Positions 9,509-39,996 of a stretch of DNA of 39,996 nucleotides are shown piece after piece. Location of the stretch: the IMG/VR virus record IMGVR_UViG_3300034523_000094, positions 1-39,996 of that record, one strand, 5' to 3'. Each line of letters starts with the position of its first letter. Position 1 is the stretch's first letter. The notes beneath the pieces were generated by a model. That model did no database searches, had not been told where the DNA came from, and worked only from the letters and a program-made list of their open reading frames with translations. The stretch is from a virus. The position numbers and the translations under genes are program-made.

Positions 9509-10506
9509 GCATGCTTATTCCGGGGCTCAACCAGCTGGCCGAGCCCGAGATCGTCAAGGTCGAAACCTTCGAGACGCTGCTCGCCGAGTTCAAGGCCGAG
9601 GTGCTGGCCTATGTGCAGGCCCGCGACCCCGAGAAGGCCGCACGCCTGGCCGAGGCGCTGGAGAACGACAGCGACCTGCTGGCCATGATCCTGCAGGCCT
9701 TCACGCTGCGCCTGCAGAGCCACGAGCGAAAATACAACGCGCGAATCAAGCAAATGCTGGCCTGGTGGGCAGAGGGCTCGAACCTCGACGCCCGCGCCGC
9801 CGACATGGGCCTCGAGCGCCGCGTCGTCACCCCCGGCGACCCCGACGCCTTCCCGCCGGTACCCGCTGAGGTCGAGCTGGACGAGGATCTGCGCCTGCGC
9901 TACTACCTGGCGCCTCACGCGCCGGCCGCTGGCTCGAGGCTGCACTACCGCCGCGAGGCGCTGACCCTCGGCGACCGCGCCGCCGTATCGATCACTGCCC
10001 CCGAGCCCGGCACCGTGGTGGTTACGTACACCCTGCAGCCCGACGCCCTCGCCGCACAGGTGAAGGACGTCCGCCCCGTGCGCACAGCACCCGGTGTCGT
10101 CACGGTGTGGGTGCTTAGCCGCGCCGCTCGCGGCGAGCCGAGCGAGGCCCTGCTCGACGCCCAGCGCGCCCACTTCGCGCGCGAGGACGTTTCGCCCGAG
10201 ACGGACACGGTCGACATTCGCCCGGCAGTCATCGTCGGGTACCAGATCCGCGCCACCGCCTACATCAACCCCGGCCCTGACGCCGAGATCACACAGCGGT
10301 CGGCTGTCAGCGCCCTGGCTGAATACGCCGCCGCGCAGCATCGCCTGAAAGGGTACGTCGACCCTGATCACATTCGCGCCCGCCTGATCGGCGCCGGCGC
10401 GGTGCGCCTGGATCTGCTCGAGCCCTTGGCGCCCATCGCCTGCAGCGATGGCGAGGCCCCTTTCTGCGACTCGATCGCGATTGATATCAAGGTGCTGAGC
10501 CCATGA
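9505..10506 (+). CDS. Baseplate protein J
   Basis: Collinear similarity to remembered P2 gpJ (LNQLAEPEIV..., VSITAPEPGTVVVTY, EDVSPETDTVDIRPAVIVGYQIRATAYINPGPD, AAQHRLKG). GTG at 9505 or ATG at 9511. Confidence 0.85.
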   Translation: MSMLIPGLNQLAEPEIVKVETFETLLAEFKAEVLAYVQARDPEKAARLAEALENDSDLLAMILQAFTLRLQSHERKYNARIKQMLAWWAEGSNLDARAADMGLERRVVTPGDPDAFPPVPAEVELDEDLRLRYYLAPHAPAAGSRLHYRREALTLGDRAAVSITAPEPGTVVVTYTLQPDALAAQVKDVRPVRTAPGVVTVWVLSRAARGEPSEALLDAQRAHFAREDVSPETDTVDIRPAVIVGYQIRATAYINPGPDAEITQRSAVSALAEYAAAQHRLKGYVDPDHIRARLIGAGAVRLDLLEPLAPIACSDGEAPFCDSIAIDIKVLSP

Positions 10507-11612
10507 CTCTATTGCCGGCCAACAGCTCGCTGCTCGAGCTCGCTCTCGACACGGTCGCGGGCGAGCTGATCGACCGCATCGCCCCGCCGTTCCCGGCGCT
10601 GATGAATGCCGCCGAGACGCCGGCCGAGTTCCTGCCGTATCTCGCCGCCGACCGCGGCATCACTCACTGGCCCGCCACGGCCCCGGAGGCGCAGAAGCGC
10701 GCCGCCGTGGCGGGCGCGTGGGAGGTCAAGCGCCTCGCCGGAACTCGTCACGCGATCAAGCGCGCACTGGCAGCGGCAGGCTATGACGTGCTGTCGATCG
10801 AGGGCGGCACCGCCTACCAGCGCGCCTGGCAGGCGCTTGGCGGACTGACGCTTGACGGCAGCTGGCAACTGGACGGCACGCCGACGCTCACCCCGCCGGA
10901 CGGCAGTGCGACCCTGATGCGCGCGACGCCGCTCGACCACTGGTCGAAGTACGCCATTCACATCAACACCGCCGACGGCGCCTGGTCACGCGAGCAGCAG
11001 AGCAAGATCCGCGCGCTGGCCGAGGAGCATGGGCCGCTGCGTAGCGAGCTGGTGGCAATTGTCGCGGCCATCCGCGCCCACCTCGGCCGCCCCGTCCGCG
11101 CCACCCGCCTTGCTCAACAAGTCCGCATCCGCCTCGCCAAATGCCAGCGCGTGCAACCCCTTCAGCGCCGCACGCTCGACGGCTGCTGGTCGCTGGGCGG
11201 CGAGACCGCGCCGCGGCACCTGGACGGCACGCAGCAGCTCGACGGCAGCACTCGGCTCGACGGCCTGCGCCTGGTCGGCAGCTGGTCGTGGGCAGAGGGG
11301 CACGCCCGCATGGGTCAGCGCCTGCGCCTGCAGCTGCGCGCCACCGTCGGTACCGGCTCGCCGGCTCAGCCGGCGGACCTCGCGCCGCGCTACCTGCCGC
11401 TCGACGGCAGCGCCCGGCTTGACTCGCTCACGCTCGGCGGCTGGCCGCTCGACGAAGGCATCACCCTCGGCGATGCCGCGCTCGACCGCCTCGGCCTGCA
11501 CAAGCTCGACGGCACCTGGCAGCTCGGCGCCCGGCCTTCCGCGCCGCGCGTGCGCGCCCGCATCACCGCTCGCATCCGCCAGCACGGCACAACTCAGCAG
11601 GTAGCCCTATGA
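10503..11612 (+). CDS. Tail protein I (P2 gpI-like) with a C-terminal extension containing LDG repeats
   Basis: The N-terminus LLPANSSLLELALD...EFLPYLAADRGI is the gpI signature. The C-terminal half carries repeated LDGxWxLxG motifs. Confidence 0.75.
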   Translation: MTLLPANSSLLELALDTVAGELIDRIAPPFPALMNAAETPAEFLPYLAADRGITHWPATAPEAQKRAAVAGAWEVKRLAGTRHAIKRALAAAGYDVLSIEGGTAYQRAWQALGGLTLDGSWQLDGTPTLTPPDGSATLMRATPLDHWSKYAIHINTADGAWSREQQSKIRALAEEHGPLRSELVAIVAAIRAHLGRPVRATRLAQQVRIRLAKCQRVQPLQRRTLDGCWSLGGETAPRHLDGTQQLDGSTRLDGLRLVGSWSWAEGHARMGQRLRLQLRATVGTGSPAQPADLAPRYLPLDGSARLDSLTLGGWPLDEGITLGDAALDRLGLHKLDGTWQLGARPSAPRVRARITARIRQHGTTQQVAL

Positions 11613-11968
11613 CGTCACCCATCCTTACCACCACGGCCTACCGCAGCCACATCGCCCTCGCTGCCGCGACCGGCTCGGCGCTGTCGCCCATCGCCTACCT
11701 CGCGTTCGGCGAAGGCACCCGCGCCTATTCGCCCGACGAAGACACCGCCCTCGAGGCCGAGGTGCTGCGCCTTCCGGCCACTGCCACCTCGGCCGGCCCG
11801 GAGGTCACCGCCTCGGCCACGCTGCCGGGCAGCGCGGTCAGCGGCAAGACCATCACCGAGGTCGGCGCCTTCACCGCCTCCGGCGTGCTGGTCGCCCGTA
11901 AAAAAATCGCCCCCATCGAGCTCGAGCCCTACGGCGAGATGGACTTCGACATCGTCTTCGAATACTGA
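11609..11968 (+). CDS. Tail-collar fibre N-terminal domain protein (like the N-terminus of P2 gpH), encoded as a separate ORF
   Basis: ILTTTAYRSHIALAAATGSALSPIAYLAFGEG resembles the P2 gpH N-terminus VITTAGAAKLAAATAPG...MAVGDGGG. Confidence 0.55.
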   Translation: MTSPILTTTAYRSHIALAAATGSALSPIAYLAFGEGTRAYSPDEDTALEAEVLRLPATATSAGPEVTASATLPGSAVSGKTITEVGAFTASGVLVARKKIAPIELEPYGEMDFDIVFEY

Positions 11969-11979
11969 GGAGTAACCCC

Positions 11980-14547
11980 ATGCCCCTGACCCCCAGCGCC
12001 AACCCGCAGCTGAGCGAAAGCATCCCCCAGCTGACCACCAACAGCGTCGCGCACCCGGACACCTGGAACCCGGTGCACCAGGCGCTGCTGGATAACGACG
12101 CCTACCTCGCGCGCGTGCTCGAAGAAACCGGCGCGACGCTTGGCGAGCAGGTCGCCACCCTCGATCAGCGTCTTGACGGCGTAGAGGCCACCAGCTCAGT
12201 GGCCGTGCAGCGCGCCGTCAGCCTCGACTGGCTGTACCGCGGCAACGCGATCAACTTCGAGATGTTCACCCCCGGTTATACGTTGATCGATATCGATCCG
12301 GTGGCCGTGGTGCAGGGCATAAATGGGGATGACTCGCTCGACGTCGCCGACACCAGCGCGCTGCGCGCCGGCGACTACTACGTGCTGACCGATCCCGCCG
12401 CCCTGGACGAAGAGGGCAATCCGGCGCCGGTATCCGCCCTGGTGCAGATCGCCAACATCCTCTCCGGCCAGCGCGTGCGCCTGACCGCCAACCTGGCGCG
12501 TGACTGGAGCGCCACCGCCACGCTGTCGCGCTCCAGCCTCGCAGTACAGGGCGCTGCGCTGGCCCGCGGCGAGGTCGGCGATATCTACCTGACCAAGGCG
12601 ATCAACATCGGCACCGACAGCGACGGTGGCGCCGTGGTGATTCGCCGCTCGCTCAGTGCTGCCGAGGCACGGCTCTACTACCGCGATGCCTACCAGGGCA
12701 CATGGAAGGAGTGCGGCTGGTCCATGCGCCGCAGCGGTGGCAGCATCCCGGCCGGCATGGCGGACTACGAATACATCCTGCCGATGCGCGGCGACGGCTG
12801 GTTGCGGCTGGACATTGAGGGTGAGGCGCTGACCCTCTCGCACATCGTCGCCCTGGGCACGCCCACCGGCCTCGGCGGCTTCCTCAACCCGGAGCTGGCC
12901 CCAAGCACACCGGCCATCGCCTCGCCGGCGGACGCCTCGGTCGGCATCATGGAGCGCCCGACGCTGGCCCTGGACAACTACACCAGCCCCGCCGGCAATG
13001 CCCAGCAGGCCGTGCAGTTCCAGATCTCGACCGACGCCCTGTTCGCCACCGTGCTGCACGACTCCGGTGCCCTGGGCTCCGGCCTGTCGTACCGCGTCCC
13101 GGCTGAGGTGCTGCAGGCCGGCAATACCTACTACCTGCGCGGTCGCGTCCAGGACGTCGCCGGCCTCTGGTCCGACTGGTCCGCCGTGACCAGCTTCGCC
13201 ACCGCTGCCGATTTCATCTACGTGGTCGCGCCGACCGTCACCGGCCCGGTCAGCAATGCGCTGGACGTACCCGAGCAGCCAACGCTGGCCAGCTCCTCGT
13301 TCACCGTCTCCGGCGGCGAAGACACGCACGCCGCCAGCCAGTGGCAAATCCGCACTGCCGGCGGCACCTTCAGCGCCCCGGTCTGGGACAGCGGCACCGA
13401 TGCGGTAAACCTGCTGACAGCGGTGGTCCCGGCGGGCGTGCTGCAAGCGGGCGAAACCGGCTACTACGTGCGCGTGCGCCACCAGGGCGTCACCAAGGGC
13501 TGGTCGGAATGGTCCGGCGAGAGCAAGTTCACCACCAAGGCCGCGTTCGCCACCATCGTGGGCATCGCGCTGCTGTCGACCGGCGGCGGCTCCGGCACCT
13601 GGGCGCGCATCGACGAGAACGGCGCCACCAAGGTGACCGACTCGGCATTCTTCAGCAGCCACCAGACCTACGGCCAGATCCAGGACGTCACCATCGACGG
13701 CCAGGCCATGGTCAAGATCCCCGCGTTTTACGTGAAGGCCGGCACCATCGCTGCCGGCCCCAACGCCGGCAAGCGCGCCTGGTGGATCAGCGACCAGCCC
13801 GCCGCGGGCTTCACCCTGCATCCGGCGTTCATGCGCGCCGGCGCGCCCATCGGCCAGTTCTGGGTCGGCAAGTACCAGGGCACGGCGGACGGCACCAAGT
13901 TGGGCTCCAAGCCGGGCGTCACGCCGCTGGTGTCGATCGACTTCCCGACGATGCAGGGTCGCGCCGCCGCGCGGAACGTCTCTGGCGTGTCGGGCTTCCA
14001 GCTGTGGGACTACTACCAGCTCAGCGCCATTCAGCTGCTGGCCATGATCGAGATGGGTGGTGCCAACAGCCAAGCCCTGATCGGTCGCGGCCATGTCGAC
14101 AACTCGCCGTCTGGCGTACAGGTAGTCGACCACCCCACCGTGGCGCAAGCCACCTGGCGCGGCATCGTCGGCCTGTGGGGCAACGTCTGGCAGATGGTCG
14201 ACGGCCTGCGCACCGATGCGGCGAAACGCTACGAGATCTGGGACAAGCACGGCAACAAGGGCTACATCAACACCGGCGCCACCGCCCCGGCCAACGGCTG
14301 GACCGTGAGCCTGTCGGCCAACGCCGGCGCTGATTTCGACCTCGGCCCGTTGTTCGTGCCAGCCACCACCGACAGCGCCGAAGCCAACGGCACCACCGCC
14401 GACCAGAGCTACGCGAACGCCAACTGCGTGGCGTATCACGGTGGCCACTACGGCGTCGGCTCGTACGCCGGCCTGTTCTATCTGTACGTCTCCACCGCCG
14501 CGTCGTACGCGATCCCGTACATCGGCGGCCGCCTCGCAAAGGTGTGA
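11980..14547 (+). CDS. Tail fibre / receptor-binding protein. It has two tandem FN3-like domains and a C-terminal C-type-lectin (FGE-sulfatase-like) domain. It is the DGR target protein.
   Basis: 855 aa. The C-terminus ...CVAYHGGHYGVGSYAGLFYLYVSTAASYAIPYIGGRLAKV is encoded by the variable repeat. The upstream segment WRGIVGLWGNVWQMVDG is typical of Mtd-like and FGE-type CLec domains. Confidence 0.85.
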   Translation: MPLTPSANPQLSESIPQLTTNSVAHPDTWNPVHQALLDNDAYLARVLEETGATLGEQVATLDQRLDGVEATSSVAVQRAVSLDWLYRGNAINFEMFTPGYTLIDIDPVAVVQGINGDDSLDVADTSALRAGDYYVLTDPAALDEEGNPAPVSALVQIANILSGQRVRLTANLARDWSATATLSRSSLAVQGAALARGEVGDIYLTKAINIGTDSDGGAVVIRRSLSAAEARLYYRDAYQGTWKECGWSMRRSGGSIPAGMADYEYILPMRGDGWLRLDIEGEALTLSHIVALGTPTGLGGFLNPELAPSTPAIASPADASVGIMERPTLALDNYTSPAGNAQQAVQFQISTDALFATVLHDSGALGSGLSYRVPAEVLQAGNTYYLRGRVQDVAGLWSDWSAVTSFATAADFIYVVAPTVTGPVSNALDVPEQPTLASSSFTVSGGEDTHAASQWQIRTAGGTFSAPVWDSGTDAVNLLTAVVPAGVLQAGETGYYVRVRHQGVTKGWSEWSGESKFTTKAAFATIVGIALLSTGGGSGTWARIDENGATKVTDSAFFSSHQTYGQIQDVTIDGQAMVKIPAFYVKAGTIAAGPNAGKRAWWISDQPAAGFTLHPAFMRAGAPIGQFWVGKYQGTADGTKLGSKPGVTPLVSIDFPTMQGRAAARNVSGVSGFQLWDYYQLSAIQLLAMIEMGGANSQALIGRGHVDNSPSGVQVVDHPTVAQATWRGIVGLWGNVWQMVDGLRTDAAKRYEIWDKHGNKGYINTGATAPANGWTVSLSANAGADFDLGPLFVPATTDSAEANGTTADQSYANANCVAYHGGHYGVGSYAGLFYLYVSTAASYAIPYIGGRLAKV
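14438..14540 (+). repeat. DGR variable repeat (VR), encoding the last ~35 codons of the tail-fibre gene
   Basis: Hand alignment to 15866..15968 gives 103 bp with 12 differences. Every difference lies at an adenine of the downstream copy. Confidence 0.9.
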
Positions 14548-14574
14548 TGAATCCTGTCACCTGAGTCATGTAAC

Positions 14575-14601
14575 GGGGCCAGCCCGCCGAGCGGGCGCCC
14601 C
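14575..14601 (+). promoter_or_regulatory. GC-rich hairpin 35 nt downstream of the VR: GGGGC(ca)GCCCGC-cga-GCGGGCGCCCC. Candidate DGR target-recognition hairpin and/or terminator.
   Basis: 11 complementary base pairs with a 2-nt bulge and a 3-nt loop, followed only by TTT. Confidence 0.5.
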
Positions 14602-14618
14602 TTTAGGAGTTTTGCAAA

Positions 14619-15191
14619 ATGATGAAGATCGAAAACGCCGTGCTGATCGTGGGCGCTGTCAGCGTCAACCTGCCGCTGCTGGGCACCGATGCGGTGGTGC
14701 GCGCCTGGCGTGTGCCTTCCGAGTACCGTGATAACGGCCTGTTCGTTGCGATTGATCAGCCGGGCCAGCCCGGCGAGGTCCCCGCCTGCGATCCGCAGCA
14801 GGCCGAATACTTGGGCGCGCTGGACTACCCCGCCGCCGAGACCGAAGCGCTGCGCGACGCCAAGGCCCGCAAGCTCGCTGAGATCAACCAGCACTGCGAG
14901 GCCTCGCTCGCCGCCCTGGCGGCGCCGTACCCCGAGGGCGAGGTCAAGAGCTGGCCGCAGCAAGTCAAGGAAGCCGAAGCCCTGGCGCTCGATGCCGATA
15001 CCCCCGTGCCGCTGCTCGATGCCATCGCCGCCGCCCGTGGGCTGACCGTCATCGACCTGGCTGGCCGCGTCGCGGCCAAGATGCAGGCCTACGCCGAGCA
15101 CAGCGGCGCACTGATCGGCCGCCGCCAGGCCGCAGAAGATCAGATCGAGGCCGCCACCACCCCGGCCGAGCTGGAGGGCATCACATGGTGA
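14619..15191 (+). CDS. Tail fibre assembly / chaperone-like protein
   Basis: It lies directly after the fibre gene with an AGGAG RBS. The C-terminal pattern KLAEINQHCEASLAALAAPYPEGEVKSWPQQVKEA resembles phage tail-fibre assembly chaperone domains. Confidence 0.45.
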   Translation: MMKIENAVLIVGAVSVNLPLLGTDAVVRAWRVPSEYRDNGLFVAIDQPGQPGEVPACDPQQAEYLGALDYPAAETEALRDAKARKLAEINQHCEASLAALAAPYPEGEVKSWPQQVKEAEALALDADTPVPLLDAIAAARGLTVIDLAGRVAAKMQAYAEHSGALIGRRQAAEDQIEAATTPAELEGITW

Positions 15192-15493
15192 AGCGCCTGC
15201 GCATGATCGGCCTGTGGCTGCTCTGCGCCCTGGCCGGGATCGTCGCCAGCGCCTGGATGCTGCTGGCCGTACTGGCCGGCAGCGACCGCGCCTGGAAACT
15301 CGCCATCGCGCACGACCAGCTGGCGAACGCCGCGTTCGGCGGCGACGAGGACGAGACCATCAGCTCGCGCGCCGCCAAGGCCGCGAAAGGCGGCGAGCGG
15401 TGGGGCTGCGTGCTCTGCAAGCTGCTCGACAAGCTCGACCCTGGCCACTGCGAACGCAGCATCGAGCACGACGAGGGGAAGCCGCTGCCGTGA
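15185..15493 (+). CDS. Small hypothetical membrane protein lying between the DGR target gene and avd
   Basis: GGAGGG RBS. N-terminal hydrophobic helix IGLWLLCALAGIVASAWMLLAVLAG. Its start overlaps the upstream gene and its stop overlaps avd (GTGA). Confidence 0.5.
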   Translation: MVKRLRMIGLWLLCALAGIVASAWMLLAVLAGSDRAWKLAIAHDQLANAAFGGDEDETISSRAAKAAKGGERWGCVLCKLLDKLDPGHCERSIEHDEGKPLP

Positions 15494-15843
15494 GTGATGC
15501 GCACCTGGTCCTGCTGACCAAGCTCGAGGAGCTGGACGCCTACACGCACACCGTGCTGCACCAGTTCCCGAAACTGGAGCGGCATCTGCTCTGCGCCGAC
15601 CTGCGCGCCACCATCAACCGTCTGCTGCGGCTGACGGTGGTCGCCTGGAAGCGCAAGCAGAAGACCGCCGCGCTGTTCGACCTGGACGTCGAGCTGGAGG
15701 TCTGTCGCGGGCTGATCCGCAAGGCGCACCGCTTGAGCTACATCAGCACCAAGCGCCTCGATGTTTGGATGCGCCACGTCAACGAGATCGGCCGCATCGT
15801 CGGCGCCTGGATCAAGCACGAGGGCGCCGCAACACGCAAATAG
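15490..15843 (+). CDS. avd: DGR accessory variability determinant (Avd)
   Basis: 117-aa basic helical protein. The C-terminal VNEIGRIVGAWIKHEG matches the remembered Bordetella phage bAvd segment IAEVGRILGSWIARV. It sits immediately upstream of the TR. The GTG start is coupled to the upstream stop codon. Confidence 0.8.
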   Translation: MSDAHLVLLTKLEELDAYTHTVLHQFPKLERHLLCADLRATINRLLRLTVVAWKRKQKTAALFDLDVELEVCRGLIRKAHRLSYISTKRLDVWMRHVNEIGRIVGAWIKHEGAATRK

Positions 15844-15855
15844 CAACATTGGGCA

Positions 15856-16134
15856 ATGGCTTATTACGGTGGCAACTACGGCAACGGCTCGAACGCCGGC
15901 CTGTTCTATCTGAACGTCAACAACGCCGCGTCGAACGCGAACACGAACATCGGCGGCCGCCTCGCAAACGATTACCGCCAGAAGGCGCCAGGCTCACGGG
16001 CCGGCGTCCAGTGCGTTTCCTTTGGGGCCTTTGTCCAGACCGTGTTGTCGAAGATTTACAGGGCGTCGCGGCTAGTAGCCTCGGCCAATGCGGCGGCGCC
16101 TGCCCTATCCCTCGCATGAGGTAAGGTTTCTGCT
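15856..16134 (+). ncRNA. Expected non-coding DGR template RNA (TR plus the spacer leading into the RT gene)
   Basis: Inferred from DGR biology: TR plus ~165 nt of spacer precede the RT start. The ORF 15856..16119 here is simply the TR read in frame. Confidence 0.5.
15866..15968 (+). repeat. DGR template repeat (TR)
   Basis: Contains nine AAC codons in the VR reading frame. 91 of 103 positions are identical to the VR, and all 12 mismatches are TR adenines. The last 20 bp, ATCGGCGGCCGCCTCGCAAA, are invariant. Confidence 0.9.
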
Positions 16135-17241
16135 GTGCCTGTTACAACCGCTGGCCTATGGGGCCAGATCACCAGTTTCGAGAATCTTTACGCCGCCTAC
16201 CTGGAAGCCCGGCGCGGCAAGCGCGAGCGCGGCTCGGTGCTGCGCTTCTCTGCCAACGTTGAGGAGAATCTGGTCAACCTGCAGAATCACCTGCTGTGGA
16301 AGAGCTGGCGACCCGGCAAACAGCGCGAATTCGTTGTAAAGGAGCCTAAGCTGCGGCTGATTCAGGCGCCGCCCTTCGCCGATCGCGTCATTCATCACGC
16401 CCTTGTTCGCGTGGTCGAGCCGCTGTTCGAGCGCAAATTCATCCATGACTCCTACGCCTGTCGCGTCGGCAAAGGCACCCAAGCGGCTGTCGCCAGGGCG
16501 CAGCACTTCCTGCGGGTGGCCAAGCGCAACCACGGCGACGGCTGCTACGTACTCAAGGCCGACATCAGCCGCTTCTTTTCCAGCATCCGCCACGCCTCGC
16601 TGCTGCGCGAGATCGAGCGCACCGTGCGCGACCCCGACGCCCTCTGGCTGTGGCGCCAGATCATCGCAGGCTACGGCCACGAAGCTGGCATCGGCTTGCC
16701 GGTCGGTGCGCTGACCAGCCAGCTCGGCGCCAACGTCCTGCTGAACCACCTCGACCACGTTGCGAAGGATCAGCTGGGCATCAAGTATTACGTGCGCTAC
16801 ATGGACGACTTCATCGCCGTACTGCCGAACAAGGCTGCTGCCGCCGAGGCCATGCGCGCGCTATCCGCCACGGCCAACAGCCTATGCCTGGCGATGAACC
16901 CCAAGACCGCGATCCATCCCTGGCAGCGCGGTCTCGACTTCTGTGGCTACCGCATCTGGCCAACCCACATCCTGCCGCGCAAACGCAACATCAAACGCGC
17001 CAAAGCATCGTTCCGGCAGCTGGCCACCCAATACCGCGCCGGCCTGATCGATCAGGAGCACGTTCGCCAACGCGTGAACAGCTTCCTGGCCTACAGCAAG
17101 CACTGCCAGGCGCAGAGGACGGTGGAGGGGGTGCTGGCGGATCTGATTCTTACGCGATCGTCTGGAGGTCTCGATGCTCCTGTTCCTCATGCTCGCGCTT
17201 CGCCGCCGCTGGCAGCGAGCGCACTACCGGCTCCCGCCTGA
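16135..17241 (+). CDS. DGR-type reverse transcriptase
   Basis: Carries the RT motifs: YVLKADISRFFSSI, LPVGALTSQLGANV (the DGR-typical [ILV]GxxxSQ), YVRYMDDFIAV (YMDD), and LDFCGYRI. It is adjacent to the TR. GTG start. Confidence 0.9.
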   Translation: MPVTTAGLWGQITSFENLYAAYLEARRGKRERGSVLRFSANVEENLVNLQNHLLWKSWRPGKQREFVVKEPKLRLIQAPPFADRVIHHALVRVVEPLFERKFIHDSYACRVGKGTQAAVARAQHFLRVAKRNHGDGCYVLKADISRFFSSIRHASLLREIERTVRDPDALWLWRQIIAGYGHEAGIGLPVGALTSQLGANVLLNHLDHVAKDQLGIKYYVRYMDDFIAVLPNKAAAAEAMRALSATANSLCLAMNPKTAIHPWQRGLDFCGYRIWPTHILPRKRNIKRAKASFRQLATQYRAGLIDQEHVRQRVNSFLAYSKHCQAQRTVEGVLADLILTRSSGGLDAPVPHARASPPLAASALPAPA

Positions 17242-17293
17242 CCGATGGCCACCCGGCCACCAGGGCCTGCTGCACACCTACCGCAACCCACCG

Positions 17294-17312
17294 CCGCGAA
17301 AGCGGTTTTTTT
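17294..17312 (+). terminator. Weak intrinsic terminator after the DGR cassette (CCGC-GAAA-GCGG followed by T7)
   Basis: A 4-bp stem with a GNRA loop followed by a seven-T run. Confidence 0.35.
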
Positions 17313-17330
17313 ACGCCTGGAGCACTCCGC

Positions 17331-17537
17331 ATGCCTGCACTTCGTAAGAGCTACACCGTCCTCGTCGCATTCCCCAAGGGGGGCGGCCATTGGGCGAACA
17401 AGGGCGAAAAGCTCGACCTGATGGACGTCGAGGCGCAGCAGCTGCTGCGCGCCGGCCGCATCAAGCTGACCGCCACCGAAACCGAGGCCGAGGCGCCCGC
17501 CGCCGCTGCCACCAAGAAAACCGCCGCTAAGGAGTAA
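17331..17537 (+). CDS. Small hypothetical protein upstream of the tail sheath gene
   Basis: The ATG at 17331 is in frame with the end of ORF 16650..17537. 68 aa. It ends 3 nt before the sheath gene start. Confidence 0.4.
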   Translation: MPALRKSYTVLVAFPKGGGHWANKGEKLDLMDVEAQQLLRAGRIKLTATETEAEAPAAAATKKTAAKE

Positions 17538-17539
17538 CC

Positions 17540-18706
17540 ATGGCCGAGGTAACCAATTTCGAGCACAACGGCGTTTCGGTCGAGACGACCGAGTCGCCGG
17601 AGGCAATGGGCGGGCTTGGCGATAATGTCGTCGGCCTGGTCGGTACCGCGCCGAACGCGGATATGAGCGTGCCGCGCAATGCGCCGTTTCGCATCAACAG
17701 CTACACCCTGGCTGCGCTGCTGGATCCGACCGGCGCCGAGGCGGGCACGCTCTACCAGGTGGTGCACCAGATCCTCAAGGTGGTGAAGGTGCCGATCTAT
17801 GTCGTGGTCGTCGAGGAGGGCGCCCTCGAGGCCGACACGCTGAGCAACGTGATCGGCGGCATCGACCTCGAGTCGGGCCAGAAAACCGGCCTGCAGGCGC
17901 TGACCACCTGCCAGGAGCTGCCGACCATCATCGGCGCCCCGGGCTTCTCCGACGCGCAGGCGGTGCACAGCGAGCTGGCCAGCCTGGGCAAGCGGATCCG
18001 CGCGCGCTTCGTCTTCGACGGGCTCGACGTGCCGGTCTCCGGCCAGGTGACCAACTCCGAGTCGATCGGCGGTGCCGAGCTGGGTTACGACCGGGGCTAC
18101 ATGGTCCACCAGATGCCGGCGGTCTACTCCAAGGCGGCCAAGGCCAACGTGTTCCTGCCGCCCTCGAGCCTGGCGATCGCCGCGCTGGCAGCGGTCAAGC
18201 AGTGGGAAAGCCCGGGCAACCAGGTGACCTACGCGGCCGACGTCTCGCGCGTGGTCGAGTACAACATCCTCGACAAGTCGACCGAGGGCGACCTGCTCAA
18301 CCGCTACGGCGTGAGCTACTACGCGCGCACCACCCTGGGCGGCTTCTCGCTGATCGGTAACCGCACGATCACCGGCAAGTTCATCAGCTACGTGGGCCTC
18401 GAGGACGCCATCACCCGCAAGCTGGTCAAGGCGGCGCAGAAGGTCATGGCCAAGAACCTGACCAAGTCGTTCATGGAGCAGGAGGTCAAGCGCATTGACG
18501 ACTGGCTGCAGACGCTGGTCGCCGACGAGACCATCCCGGGCGGCAAGGTGTACTTGCACCCCGAGCTGAACAGCGTCGAGAAGTACAAAAACGGCACTTG
18601 GTACCTGTGCATCGATTACGGCCGCTATGCCCCGAACGAGCACATGATTTACCAGCTCAATGCGTCTGACGCGATCATCGAAGAATTCCTGGAGGACGTC
18701 CTCTGA
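17540..18706 (+). CDS. Contractile tail sheath protein
   Basis: 388 aa with an AAGGAG RBS. It is followed by tube, chaperone and tape measure genes in P2/Mu order. The sequence is sheath-like. Confidence 0.8.
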   Translation: MAEVTNFEHNGVSVETTESPEAMGGLGDNVVGLVGTAPNADMSVPRNAPFRINSYTLAALLDPTGAEAGTLYQVVHQILKVVKVPIYVVVVEEGALEADTLSNVIGGIDLESGQKTGLQALTTCQELPTIIGAPGFSDAQAVHSELASLGKRIRARFVFDGLDVPVSGQVTNSESIGGAELGYDRGYMVHQMPAVYSKAAKANVFLPPSSLAIAALAAVKQWESPGNQVTYAADVSRVVEYNILDKSTEGDLLNRYGVSYYARTTLGGFSLIGNRTITGKFISYVGLEDAITRKLVKAAQKVMAKNLTKSFMEQEVKRIDDWLQTLVADETIPGGKVYLHPELNSVEKYKNGTWYLCIDYGRYAPNEHMIYQLNASDAIIEEFLEDVL

Positions 18707-26626: not shown

Positions 26627-26938
26627 TCACTTCTGCGCCTGCAGCCGCCGGCGCAACTCGTCGAGATCCTCGACCTCGAATTTCCCCTCGCCCCGCTTGT
26701 ACTTCTCGAACAGGTCGTCGATCGCCTCGAGGAGCAGGTACTTGACCGGCGTCGAGTCGCTGGTCATGTTTTTCAAGTCCTGCAGCCCCTTGTGGTAGCG
26801 CACCGGCGCCAGCAGCGGAATCTTCTTTTCTTCGCCATCGCCCGACACTGCAGCGCGCGCCTTTTCGACGTGCGGGCGCTCGATGGTGGGCGCGCCTGCG
26901 CGGCTGGGGCGGGCGGTGCTCAGCTTCCCGTCGGTCAT
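26627..26938 (-). CDS. Small partition partner of ParA, probably a ribbon-helix-helix centromere-binding protein (ParG-like)
   Basis: 103 aa with an ATGA overlap with the parA stop. A disordered N-terminus is followed by a segment IPLLAPVRYHKGLQDL...VKYLLLEAIDDLFEKY, compatible with a strand-helix-helix fold. Confidence 0.5.
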   Translation of the reverse strand: MTDGKLSTARPSRAGAPTIERPHVEKARAAVSGDGEEKKIPLLAPVRYHKGLQDLKNMTSDSTPVKYLLLEAIDDLFEKYKRGEGKFEVEDLDELRRRLQAQK

Positions 26939-27585
26939 TGCAGCAGCTCCAGCAGTTCGGCGGTGACGGCTTCGATCTCGAGGCGCGCCTTGTTGTCGGC
27001 CGGCAGGTCCATGACGCTCTGCCCGCTGCCAATGTCGCGCACGTAGGACTGCCGCTGGCAGGTCTGGCTCGACAGGATGGGCAGCTCGAAGGCCTCGAGC
27101 GCTTCGCGTGCGGTGCGCTCGATCACCGTGCCCGGTACCGCGCGGGCGACCATCATCACGGCGTGAGGGTGGCCGTCTGCGATCTCCTGCCGGTCCTTTA
27201 CCAGTTGCACCAGGTCGCTGCAGGCCCATATGTCGTACTGGCTCGGCTGCACCGGGATCAGCACCAGGTCGGCCGCCTTGATCGCTGCGGCGGCCAGCTC
27301 GCTGATCTGCGGCACGCCGTCGACGACGACGAAGTCATAGCCGCCCGCCACGCGGGGCAGGTCGCGCGCCAGTTGCTTGCCCATGGCCACGCACGGGATC
27401 ACGCCCGGGTCGCCCTCGGCGCCCTCCCGGCTGGCCGCCCAATCGGTTGCCGAGCCTTGCGGGTCGAGGTCGACCAGCAGCACGCGCTTGCCGTGGGTGA
27501 CGGCCAAGCAGCTGGCCACGTTGACCGCGCTCGTCGTCTTTGTGGTGCCACCCTTCTGGTTGAGCACCGAAATTACCTTCGCCAT
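26935..27585 (-). CDS. parA: ParA/Soj-type partition ATPase (small, type Ib-like)
   Basis: Deviant Walker A MAKVISVLNQKGGTTKTT, plus VLLVDLDPQGS and DFVVVDG. An AGGAGGG RBS precedes the ATG at 27585. Confidence 0.85.
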   Translation of the reverse strand: MAKVISVLNQKGGTTKTTSAVNVASCLAVTHGKRVLLVDLDPQGSATDWAASREGAEGDPGVIPCVAMGKQLARDLPRVAGGYDFVVVDGVPQISELAAAAIKAADLVLIPVQPSQYDIWACSDLVQLVKDRQEIADGHPHAVMMVARAVPGTVIERTAREALEAFELPILSSQTCQRQSYVRDIGSGQSVMDLPADNKARLEIEAVTAELLELLQ

Positions 27586-27631
27586 CGCTGGCCCTCCTGG
27601 TGGGTTATCAGATCCAACGGGCACAGATTAG

Positions 27632-27679: not shown

Positions 27680-27998
27680 AAGCGGACGCGCCAGCGTCCA
27701 ACCTTGTCCGCCTGAATAGCCCCGTCCTTTCTCCCGTGGCCGCAGCCCAGCAGCGGCGCGGGTTTCCCGCGCCATAAACAAGCAGCGCGAAGCGCTGGTC
27801 CTTTTGGTGCATGCCCTCTGCCGCGTCCTTTCTGACCATCTAGCCCGCTGCCGCATCCTTTCCTTGCTGGTGGTTGAGCAGTCGCCGCCCCTTCGCGCTC
27901 GCCTACTTTGCCGCATGGCAAAGGGTGTATGCCTGCGCAGCATCCATACACCCTATACCCTAACAAGTGCATACACCCTCACCCCTAGCACAAGATAG

Positions 27999-28070
27999 GG
28001 CCGCAGGTGTATGCACCCCTGCCCCATTCTATACGTATAGAATGGGGCAGGGGTGCATACACCTGCGGCC
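27999..28070. repeat. Perfect 72-bp palindrome (36-bp arms, centre TATAC|GTATA). Candidate telomere resolution site (telRL).
   Basis: The arms were checked base by base. The core CCATTCTATACGTATAGAATGG resembles the remembered N15 telO CCATTATACGCGCGTATAATGG. It lies 135 bp upstream of the protelomerase gene. Confidence 0.8.
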
Positions 28071-28204
28071 ATATCTACCACTGCGCGAGTTCGTGCCCTA
28101 TGGCTTGGGGTGTATGCGATGAGCGAGTAGGGCTTGTGGTGCATAGTTGTAATGTGTAGAATCTGCGCTAGGGTTTACGGTGTATGCCTAAAGGAGGGCG
28201 AGCC

Positions 28205-39869: not shown

Positions 39870-39996
39870 TCACGGGTGTGAAACTCGCGGGCTTCGCGCG
39901 GGTTTGGATCCGCGAGTCGGGTCCGTTCTTCCTTTCTCGAGGCCCTGCCGGCCTGCTTCGCTCGGCTGACCCCGCAGCCAGTCACGGCGGGGCCTC
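39870..39996. repeat. Copy of bases 1..127 (contig-end overlap)
   Basis: Identical on direct reading. Confidence 0.9.

Follow-up and report, generated by a model that had tools for sequence, protein, structure and literature searches.

The diversity-generating retroelement (DGR) of Bordetella phage BPP-1, organized as mtd-avd-TR-brt, combines a fibre tip of C-type-lectin fold with a variable repeat (VR) at the 3′ end of its gene, the accessory protein Avd, a template repeat (TR) with AAC codons and a reverse transcriptase (RT) featuring the [ILV]GxxxSQ and YMDD motifs. The same components are found in the locus described here, which lies in the IMG/VR virus record IMGVR_UViG_3300034523_000094; the whole stretch analysed, hereafter the window, spans positions 1 to 39,996 of that record. 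We read the locus as a complete, recently active DGR, in which 13 codons specifying the C-terminal ligand-binding face of a tail-fibre/receptor-binding protein are hypermutated, and give this reading a probability of about 0.9. DGRs acting on phage fibres are a textbook case, and the element clearly belongs to this well-known type of system and does not define a new one; the general understanding of DGRs is unchanged by it.

The BPP-1 and window DGRs also resemble each other in the GC-rich segment common to the 3′ ends of their repeats and in a potential diversity of ~1e13 proteins, and the two RTs are 38.6% identical. They differ in the gap between VR and TR (422 nt in BPP-1, 1325 nt in the window, where two extra open reading frames [ORFs] occur) and in the size of the target, which is the 381-residue Mtd in BPP-1 and an 855-residue fusion with Ig-like domains here. 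BPP-1 is a podovirus that integrates at an attachment site, whereas the window is predicted to derive from a myovirus-type linear plasmid-prophage. A preliminary description of the window had reported a complete DGR in the canonical BPP-1 order. The target gene, VR, avd, TR and RT gene all map where it placed them; the strict contiguous order does not hold, as two genes (p190 and p102) separate the VR from avd. The core features are as follows:

11980..14547, plus strand: ORF encoding the DGR target, an 855-aa tail-fibre/receptor-binding protein, with the VR at its 3′ end
14438..14540, plus strand: VR, encoding aa 820-854 of the target
14524..14565, plus strand: VR 3′ end resembling an initiation of mutagenic homing (IMH) site, with the GC-rich 14-mer GGCGGCCGCCTCGC, AAA, then VR-specific GGTGTGATG...
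14575..14601, plus strand: GC-rich hairpin 3′ of the VR, GGGGC-CA-GCCCGC-CGA-GCGGGC-GCCCC (DNA fold)
15490..15843, plus strand: avd, accessory variability determinant, 117 aa (Pfam, NCBIfam, PHROG)
15866..15968, plus strand: TR, including 26 adenines; nine of its codons, read in the target frame, are AAC
15960..16103, plus strand: structured spacer (Sp) of the DGR RNA (RNAalifold covariation)
16135..17241, plus strand: DGR RT, 368 aa, with RVT_1 (Pfam), VGALTSQ at aa 190 and YMDD at aa 222

DGRs are also present in telomere-type myophages. VHML is listed among phage DGRs (PMC3240598), and VP58.5 features annotated Avd and RT proteins together with a protelomerase homologue. In these phages, assigned to Vhmlvirus, the DGR occupies the same slot as in the window (fibre, target, Avd, RT, sheath). 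However, their proteins are only distantly related to those of the window (RT 40%, Avd 37%, sheath 30% and protelomerase 24-25% identity), the target is 410 aa long, and p190 and p102 are absent. The telomere phage phiHAP-1 and the Pseudomonas aeruginosa phage-plasmid pF010_1 differ in another way, as they carry other fibre modules and lack Avd, RT and TR between gpI and the sheath gene. A literature search combining DGR with protelomerase retrieved a single paper, on an unrelated subject. The earlier suggestion that the combination might be uncharacterised calls for correction, since telomere phages carrying DGRs (VHML, VP58.5) are already known. In Stutzerimonas genomes, moreover, NCBI already lists the Avd cluster under the name “diversity-generating retroelement protein Avd”.

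Adenine-directed variation in the VR

VR and TR keep the same register at an offset of 1428 and differ at 12 of 103 nucleotides. Each of the 12 mismatches coincides with a TR adenine and affects the first or second position of a codon in the target frame. Given that 26 of the 103 nt are adenines, the probability that all 12 map at adenines by chance is 6e-9. The homology continues weakly for 9 nt upstream, to 14429/15857, and this extension includes two non-A mismatches. No second TR-like copy was found elsewhere in the window. The observed variable positions span 14446-14521 and affect 13 codons. The corresponding TR codons are the nine AAC codons plus TAC, TAT, ACG and ATC, which, by computation, may generate ~1e13 different proteins and no stop codon. 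An 87-aa ORF that gene callers report over the TR (15856-16119) is a by-product of the coding sequence copied at this place.

Relatives of the element were gathered from seven public contigs encoding the exact RT protein, from pattern scans and from protein look-ups. The preliminary description had proposed to look for VR variation confined to positions matching TR adenines. This is the pattern observed among 13 related elements, which carry 13 distinct VRs: 125 of 129 differences between VR and TR map at TR adenines. The TR is identical in all related copies but two, L003 (2 changes) and L241 (one A-to-G change). For Stutzerimonas/Pseudomonas, the element adds a clean case, from nature, of a tail fibre diversified by a DGR, with thirteen VRs set against an invariant template.

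The same contrast is seen when individual columns are compared. In nine genomes, 22 of the 26 A-columns of the VR vary, with a mean pairwise difference of 0.507, while only 2 of the 77 non-A columns do (difference 0.006). The 997 nt located directly upstream in the same gene show a difference of 0.098. Since the non-A columns are nearly identical and the adjacent upstream gene sequence has diverged, the comparison shows that the VR has been repeatedly overwritten from an invariant TR. A scaffold re-copied from a constant template, with adenine positions randomised, is the signature of a DGR. Variation was never seen at the first adenine (14438) or at the final three (14538-14540), which mark the edges of the VR.

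Several observations bear on whether diversification is still under way. Three elements encoding an identical RT protein carry three different VRs, and 5 of the 7 contigs with the exact RT (L005-L008 and L014) begin inside or just before the TR; assembly breaks at this site are consistent with heterogeneous VR copies within samples. It could be argued that the DGR is a fossil, in which the VR/TR pair and the genes are relics and diversification has ended. The L241 copy, which is set in a scrambled context beside Mu-like and integrative and conjugative element (ICE) genes and has a point change in the TR, might be taken as an example. We consider this very unlikely for the window element. Every ORF is intact, the catalytic motifs of the RT included, and VRs differ between elements having a 100% identical RT protein and ~95% identical DNA. 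Moreover, non-A VR columns are ~16-fold less diverged than the adjacent gene, which requires recent homing in each lineage, and the breaks at the TR in five of the seven exact-RT contigs are those expected with heterogeneous VRs. A recently active DGR thus remains the preferred reading.

The two elements with altered TRs deserve a brief description. In L003 (9732-9834; metagenome-assembled genome GCA_003456655.1, DMQC01000017.1), TR positions 9-11 are TCC in place of AAC, as in its own VR. The two repeats have probably been merged into a chimera during assembly, although a rare VR-to-TR conversion would give the same result. In L241 (6304-9056; Logan SRR36155352_173), a VR-p190-p102-Avd-TR-RT array is found between Mu-like early genes (Mor, GemA) and ICE transfer genes (TraU, TraG, TraI). 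A full-length target gene was not called in this contig, and its RT is also found in Stutzerimonas sp. NM35. The L241 copy may be a remnant or a chimeric contig.

RT, Avd and target proteins

The RT motifs fit the [ILV]GxxxSQ and YMDD patterns, as the preliminary description had noted, and profile comparisons favour a DGR-type enzyme. The protein matches PHROG 1423 (420 bits). The best match in the PDB is 8ub7 (E 2.4e-50, 175 bits), a chain of 328 aa that bears the deposited name “Reverse transcriptase” and that we take to be the BPP-1 bRT; group II intron RTs score 87 bits. Scores obtained with the NCBIfam models of retron, DRT, Abi and group II RTs are all far under the respective cut-offs.

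An RT of another class (retron, group II intron maturase, or Abi/DRT defence) next to an ordinary duplication under diversifying selection would have to account for the same data. The top-scoring NCBIfam model is indeed that of group II intron RT/maturase (129.9 bits), and public annotations label relatives of the protein as “retron-type”. However, 129.9 bits is far under the cut-off of that model (300), and retron and DRT models fall even further under theirs; the bit score of 8ub7, presumably the BPP-1 enzyme, is double that of the best group II RT. An Avd equivalog is encoded directly upstream, and adenine-specific mismatches occur in 13 lineages, a pattern that models based on selection alone do not predict. 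The likelihood of this alternative is therefore negligible, and we regard the enzyme as a DGR RT. The NCBI record HAN51647.1, which is identical to the RT, is misannotated as “alpha/beta hydrolase [Pseudomonas sp.]”.

The assignment of the basic protein encoded at 15490..15843 as Avd, earlier proposed on the basis of its resemblance to this family, is borne out by profile searches. With the Pfam bAvd domain the protein scores 88.8 bits, against a curated cut-off of 40, and with the NCBIfam equivalog DivGenRetAVD it scores 93.7 bits, against one of 80; it also matches PHROG 3206, “Avd protein of DGR”. The isoelectric point is 9.9, and the best PDB match, full length but weak, is 4dwl, the BPP-1 Bbp7 protein. 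The avd start codon is GTG and overlaps the p102 stop codon.

The target gene occupies the P2 fibre slot, with gpI on one side and the sheath gene on the other. The N-terminal part of the protein includes Ig/FN3-like domains at aa 333-409 (Pfam Ig_Rha78A_N). The C-terminal domain, approximately aa 521-855, is of the C-type-lectin type (FGE-type), and PHROG 5302, “tail protein”, matches aa 572-853. A C-type-lectin/FGE-like C-terminus had been part of the preliminary description. Neither an FGE-sulfatase nor a lectin match was obtained for this region with Pfam and NCBIfam, and the fold was consequently decided by structure prediction and fold search. The best sequence match of the domain is TaqVP (5vf4; E 5.8e-6). 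Residues 521-855 were modelled with AlphaFold (AF2) from 67 homologues at a pLDDT of 97; in fold searches, the model retrieves TaqVP 5vf4 as the best hit (E 1.7e-15, TM 0.54-0.58), along with Mtd 1yu0 and TvpA 2y3c, followed by FGE-like enzymes. The modelled structure thus confirms the C-type-lectin/FGE fold of DGR variable proteins. TaqVP, the DGR variable protein of Thermus aquaticus, has the FGE-type C-type-lectin fold and carries the VR at the C-terminal end, as the window target does. However, the two proteins are only ~20% identical, and TaqVP is of cellular origin and does not belong to a phage fibre.

Homologues of the lectin domain that are 46-51% identical to the target, and have the same terminal ...GGRLAKV sequence, are found in L027 and L028 (Bordetella hinzii), L029 (Pararhodospirillum photometricum) and L030 (a JGI contig). 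Avd, RT or TR-like repeats were not detected within 6 kb of these genes, which may have been DGR targets in the past, may be orphan targets, or may be relatives that are not diversified. As homologues occur without a nearby DGR, the domain family alone is not a DGR marker.

RNA spacer, target-site features and proposed mechanism

The region between TR and RT, 166 nt in length, was aligned in 51 loci whose RTs are 43-100% identical to the window RT. RNAalifold revealed compensatory changes in 21 of 23 base pairs (23 of 24 in a trimmed alignment). In the trimmed alignment, 90% of the cells are paired, vs 35-44% in controls with slid partners. Covariation reached a score of 0.726, as compared with at most 0.163 in controls, and none of 500 shuffles scored as high. 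Two elements were recognized. The first (15984-16008), located 16 nt past the TR, is an interrupted 9-bp stem closed by a CACG tetraloop, which is UACG in many relatives; the second is a nested three-helix element (16062-16100). A survey of 207 DGRs described an Avd-binding stem-loop of ~9 bp located just downstream of the TR, in which UNCG loops are frequent in Pseudomonadota (bioRxiv 10.1101/2023.10.23.563531). By analogy, the stem at 15984-16008 fits this Avd-binding structure. Rfam has no match in the 14300-17600 interval, spacer included. The covarying RNA is present in >50 phage DGRs and could become a detection model.

A covariance model of the spacer also matches the DGRs of VP58.5 (E 6e-10) and of a prophage on the Ideonella dechloratans plasmid NZ_CP088082.1. 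The latter (L032, 4326-7725) has a tandem Avd-RT-Avd-RT arrangement. Both its spacers are matched by the model, and the second pair shows ~72% DNA identity to the Avd-TR-RT segment of the window. A 22-nt direct repeat, 77% identical and with GGCGCCTG in common, occurs at 15788-15809, inside avd and upstream of the TR, and at 16081-16102, in the 3′ strand of spacer helix 3. The repeat could permit an alternative pairing similar to the “stop” duplex of BPP-1.

At the target site, the GC-rich 14-mer GGCGGCCGCCTCGC is found at 14524-14537 in the VR and at 15952-15965 in the TR. VR and TR part ways completely past the common ...GGCGGCCGCCTCGCAAA, diverging from 14541/15969, where the VR flank GGTGTGATG... 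is unlike the TR flank CGATTACC...; the VR-specific flank is kept in 10 relatives. A shared GC-rich segment followed by diverging flanks matches what is expected of IMH (VR) and IMH* (TR) sites, and a corresponding function is suggested by analogy with BPP-1 (PMC3240598). The hairpin located downstream starts 34 nt past the VR end and has a 3-nt loop (CGA). In 10 relatives, the inner stem and loop are invariant and the flanks vary; no covariation is observed at the stem. The hairpin may serve in DGR target recognition, as a terminator of the fibre gene, or both. A small AGGTG/CACCT stem across the VR end and the target stop codon was discarded, being broken in the relative L011.

These features suggest how the element would work. 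A transcript comprising the 3′ end of avd, the TR and the structured spacer would be bound by an RT-Avd complex, as suggested by the presence and conservation of the RNA structure and of both proteins. By homology with known DGRs, the RT would copy the TR into cDNA and misincorporate nucleotides opposite adenines, the adenine-only footprint of which is observed in the VRs. The cDNA would then replace the VR, guided by the common GC-rich 3′ segment and the VR-specific flank, and possibly by the downstream GC hairpin. The TR codons allow, by computation, the stop-free set of ~1e13 proteins noted above, and the result would be a switch in receptor specificity.

Some observations weigh against this picture, or against parts of it. 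Four of the 129 VR differences map at non-A positions, and the evidence of diversification comes from the comparison of related elements, not from reads of one population. In phage DGRs, a GC-rich hairpin or cruciform is located 4-34 bp past the VR and has a GRNA loop of 4 nt (PMC3240598). The window hairpin, with its 3-nt loop and 34-nt distance from the VR end, misfits the 4-nt GRNA consensus and, in this respect, differs from BPP-1. The BPP-1 spacer is likewise missed by the covariance model derived from the window, even with filters off, and column-pair statistics on the spacer alignment did not locate the TR-to-spacer priming duplex; details of priming are therefore extrapolated. Lastly, the assignment of the 855-aa protein as a receptor-binding fibre rests on gene position, the PHROG “tail protein” match and the predicted fold. 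On balance, the presence of a DGR diversifying a receptor-binding fibre tip on a telomere phage-plasmid, the central claim of the preliminary description, was supported by every test run.

Fibre module and telomere-phage backbone

Comparison of relatives revealed that the DGR is part of a larger exchangeable block, which includes the two genes that interrupt the BPP-1-like order:

10815..17145, plus strand: fibre+DGR module, including the C-terminal part of gpI, p119, the target gene, p190, p102, avd, TR, Sp and RT aa 1-337
14619..15191, plus strand: p190, an acidic 190-aa protein (HI1402_helical / PHROG 2618; PF27318 in the precomputed annotation)
15185..15493, plus strand: p102, a 102-aa protein with a hydrophobic N-terminus (PHROG 34710)

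The sheath proteins of L035, L037 and L040 are 25-27% identical to that of the window, yet the 10815-17145 segment, and only that, is shared at 88-91% identity. The same block is found in an integrated P2-like prophage in the chromosome of Stutzerimonas sp. FeSN7. Conversely, of 66 IMG/VR loci of the same backbone family in which both gpI and sheath are present, only one has the DGR, and contigs with 98-100% identical sheath and protelomerase carry another fibre block. In DGR-less, nearly identical backbones, the alignment to the window ends at ~10657-10753 and restarts at ~17263-17293. The block is thus swappable, with fibre and DGR travelling jointly in a 6.3-kb module. These alignments show that the module is exchanged in Stutzerimonas, its carriers being a linear plasmid-prophage with a phiHAP-1-like backbone and a P2-like prophage of the integrating type. 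The DGR reached the window as part of this module.

The left boundary (~10.75-10.82 kb) falls within the gpI gene. The gpI homologue (10503-11612) is 369 aa long, as compared with the 139 positions of the Tail_P2_I profile, and has a C-terminal extension rich in LDG-type repeats.

One may envisage that the block moves, as a self-contained cassette, from one type of carrier to another within a host genus, the carriers being an integrating P2-like prophage and a linear plasmid-prophage present in multiple copies. On the latter, the DGR may diversify during carriage, producing mixed receptor specificities in one lysogen lineage before induction. Taken as a whole, this scenario is tentative and somewhat doubtful: the exchange of the cassette is observed, and diversification during plasmid carriage is speculation. 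Being present on two phage backbones, and absent from nearly identical telomere phages, the module provides a convenient comparative system in which to address the contribution of DGRs to host range and the spread of DGR cassettes together with receptor-binding modules.

The order target-p190-p102-Avd-TR-RT is kept in all loci with an RT identity of at least ~63%. More distant relatives, which form a sister clade, have a compact order, with the p190 homologue downstream of the RT. No identical copy of the 190-aa protein was found by exact look-up. Homologues of p102, 63% identical, are found in the DGR-less relatives L157 and L167, and p102 DNA shows 72% similarity to Acidithiobacillus phage AcaML1. 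As a p190 homologue follows the RT in distant relatives, and p102 also occurs without a DGR, the two are read as genes of the fibre module and not of the DGR machinery: p190 is probably a fibre-associated or assembly protein that accompanies the fibre type, and p102, as judged from its distribution, is not DGR-specific. The constancy of the gene order down to that level of RT identity, and the overlap of the p102 stop with the avd start, would also be compatible with p190 and p102 being new accessory components of a DGR subtype rather than fibre or backbone genes. This is unlikely, given the displaced p190 homologue in the sister clade and the p102 homologues in DGR-less relatives and in AcaML1; furthermore, neither protein resembles known nucleic-acid enzymes in Pfam, NCBIfam or PHROG. 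The phiHAP-1 proteins gp18 and gp19 were considered as homologues of p190 and p102 and rejected, since no similarity was found. The simple picture of a cassette inserted behind an ancestral chaperone was abandoned as a consequence.

The backbone had been described as a combination of P2-like tail genes, lambda-like packaging and an N15-like linear-plasmid maintenance module, and the genes found agree with this view. They include a protelomerase with three protelomerase Pfam domains, ParA (26935-27624), a CI-like repressor, Q, a 1304-aa RepA-like replication protein (PHROG 4913 “replication”, E 1.5e-290), a lambda-type (gpA-type) terminase, a lambda-type portal and P2-type tail genes. An 84-bp palindrome (27993-28076), 98% complementary and flanked by shorter GTGTATGCA-type inverted repeats, is located 108 nt upstream of the protelomerase gene (tel), and is likely the telomere-resolution site. 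Some 20 IMG/VR contigs, 36-39 kb in size, terminate ~150 nt before tel, which is an indirect indication of a linear replicon with covalently closed hairpin ends. The window itself has the same 127 nt at both ends (an exact direct repeat, 1-127 and 39870-39996), which identifies it as a circularly closed assembly; its true length is 39,869 bp, in agreement with public contigs of 39,847 and 39,870 bp.

The protelomerase is 58% identical to that of phiHAP-1 and 51% to that of VP882, and the sheath is 62% identical to the phiHAP-1 protein; the corresponding values are 24-25% for the protelomerases of VHML and VP58.5, and 30% for the VP58.5 sheath. The closest backbones, as judged from these identities, are those of phiHAP-1/VP882 (Hapunavirus-type telomere phages) and not VHML, and the proposal that the phage is a GC-rich VHML relative does not stand. 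A protelomerase 99% identical to that of the window was found in Stutzerimonas kunmingensis in a scan of genome contigs; together with the Avd cluster and the FeSN7 prophage in Stutzerimonas genomes, this makes Stutzerimonas the likely host. Pseudomonas aeruginosa phage-plasmids such as pF010_1 show ~80% DNA identity across ~70% of window positions 1-25000. The P. aeruginosa “plasmids” NZ_CP115281.1 and NZ_CP096940.1 (75-77 kb) each contain two matches to the window backbone and are about twice as long as the related 38-kb CP075795.1; they could represent a telomere phage with hairpin ends that was assembled as a dimer.

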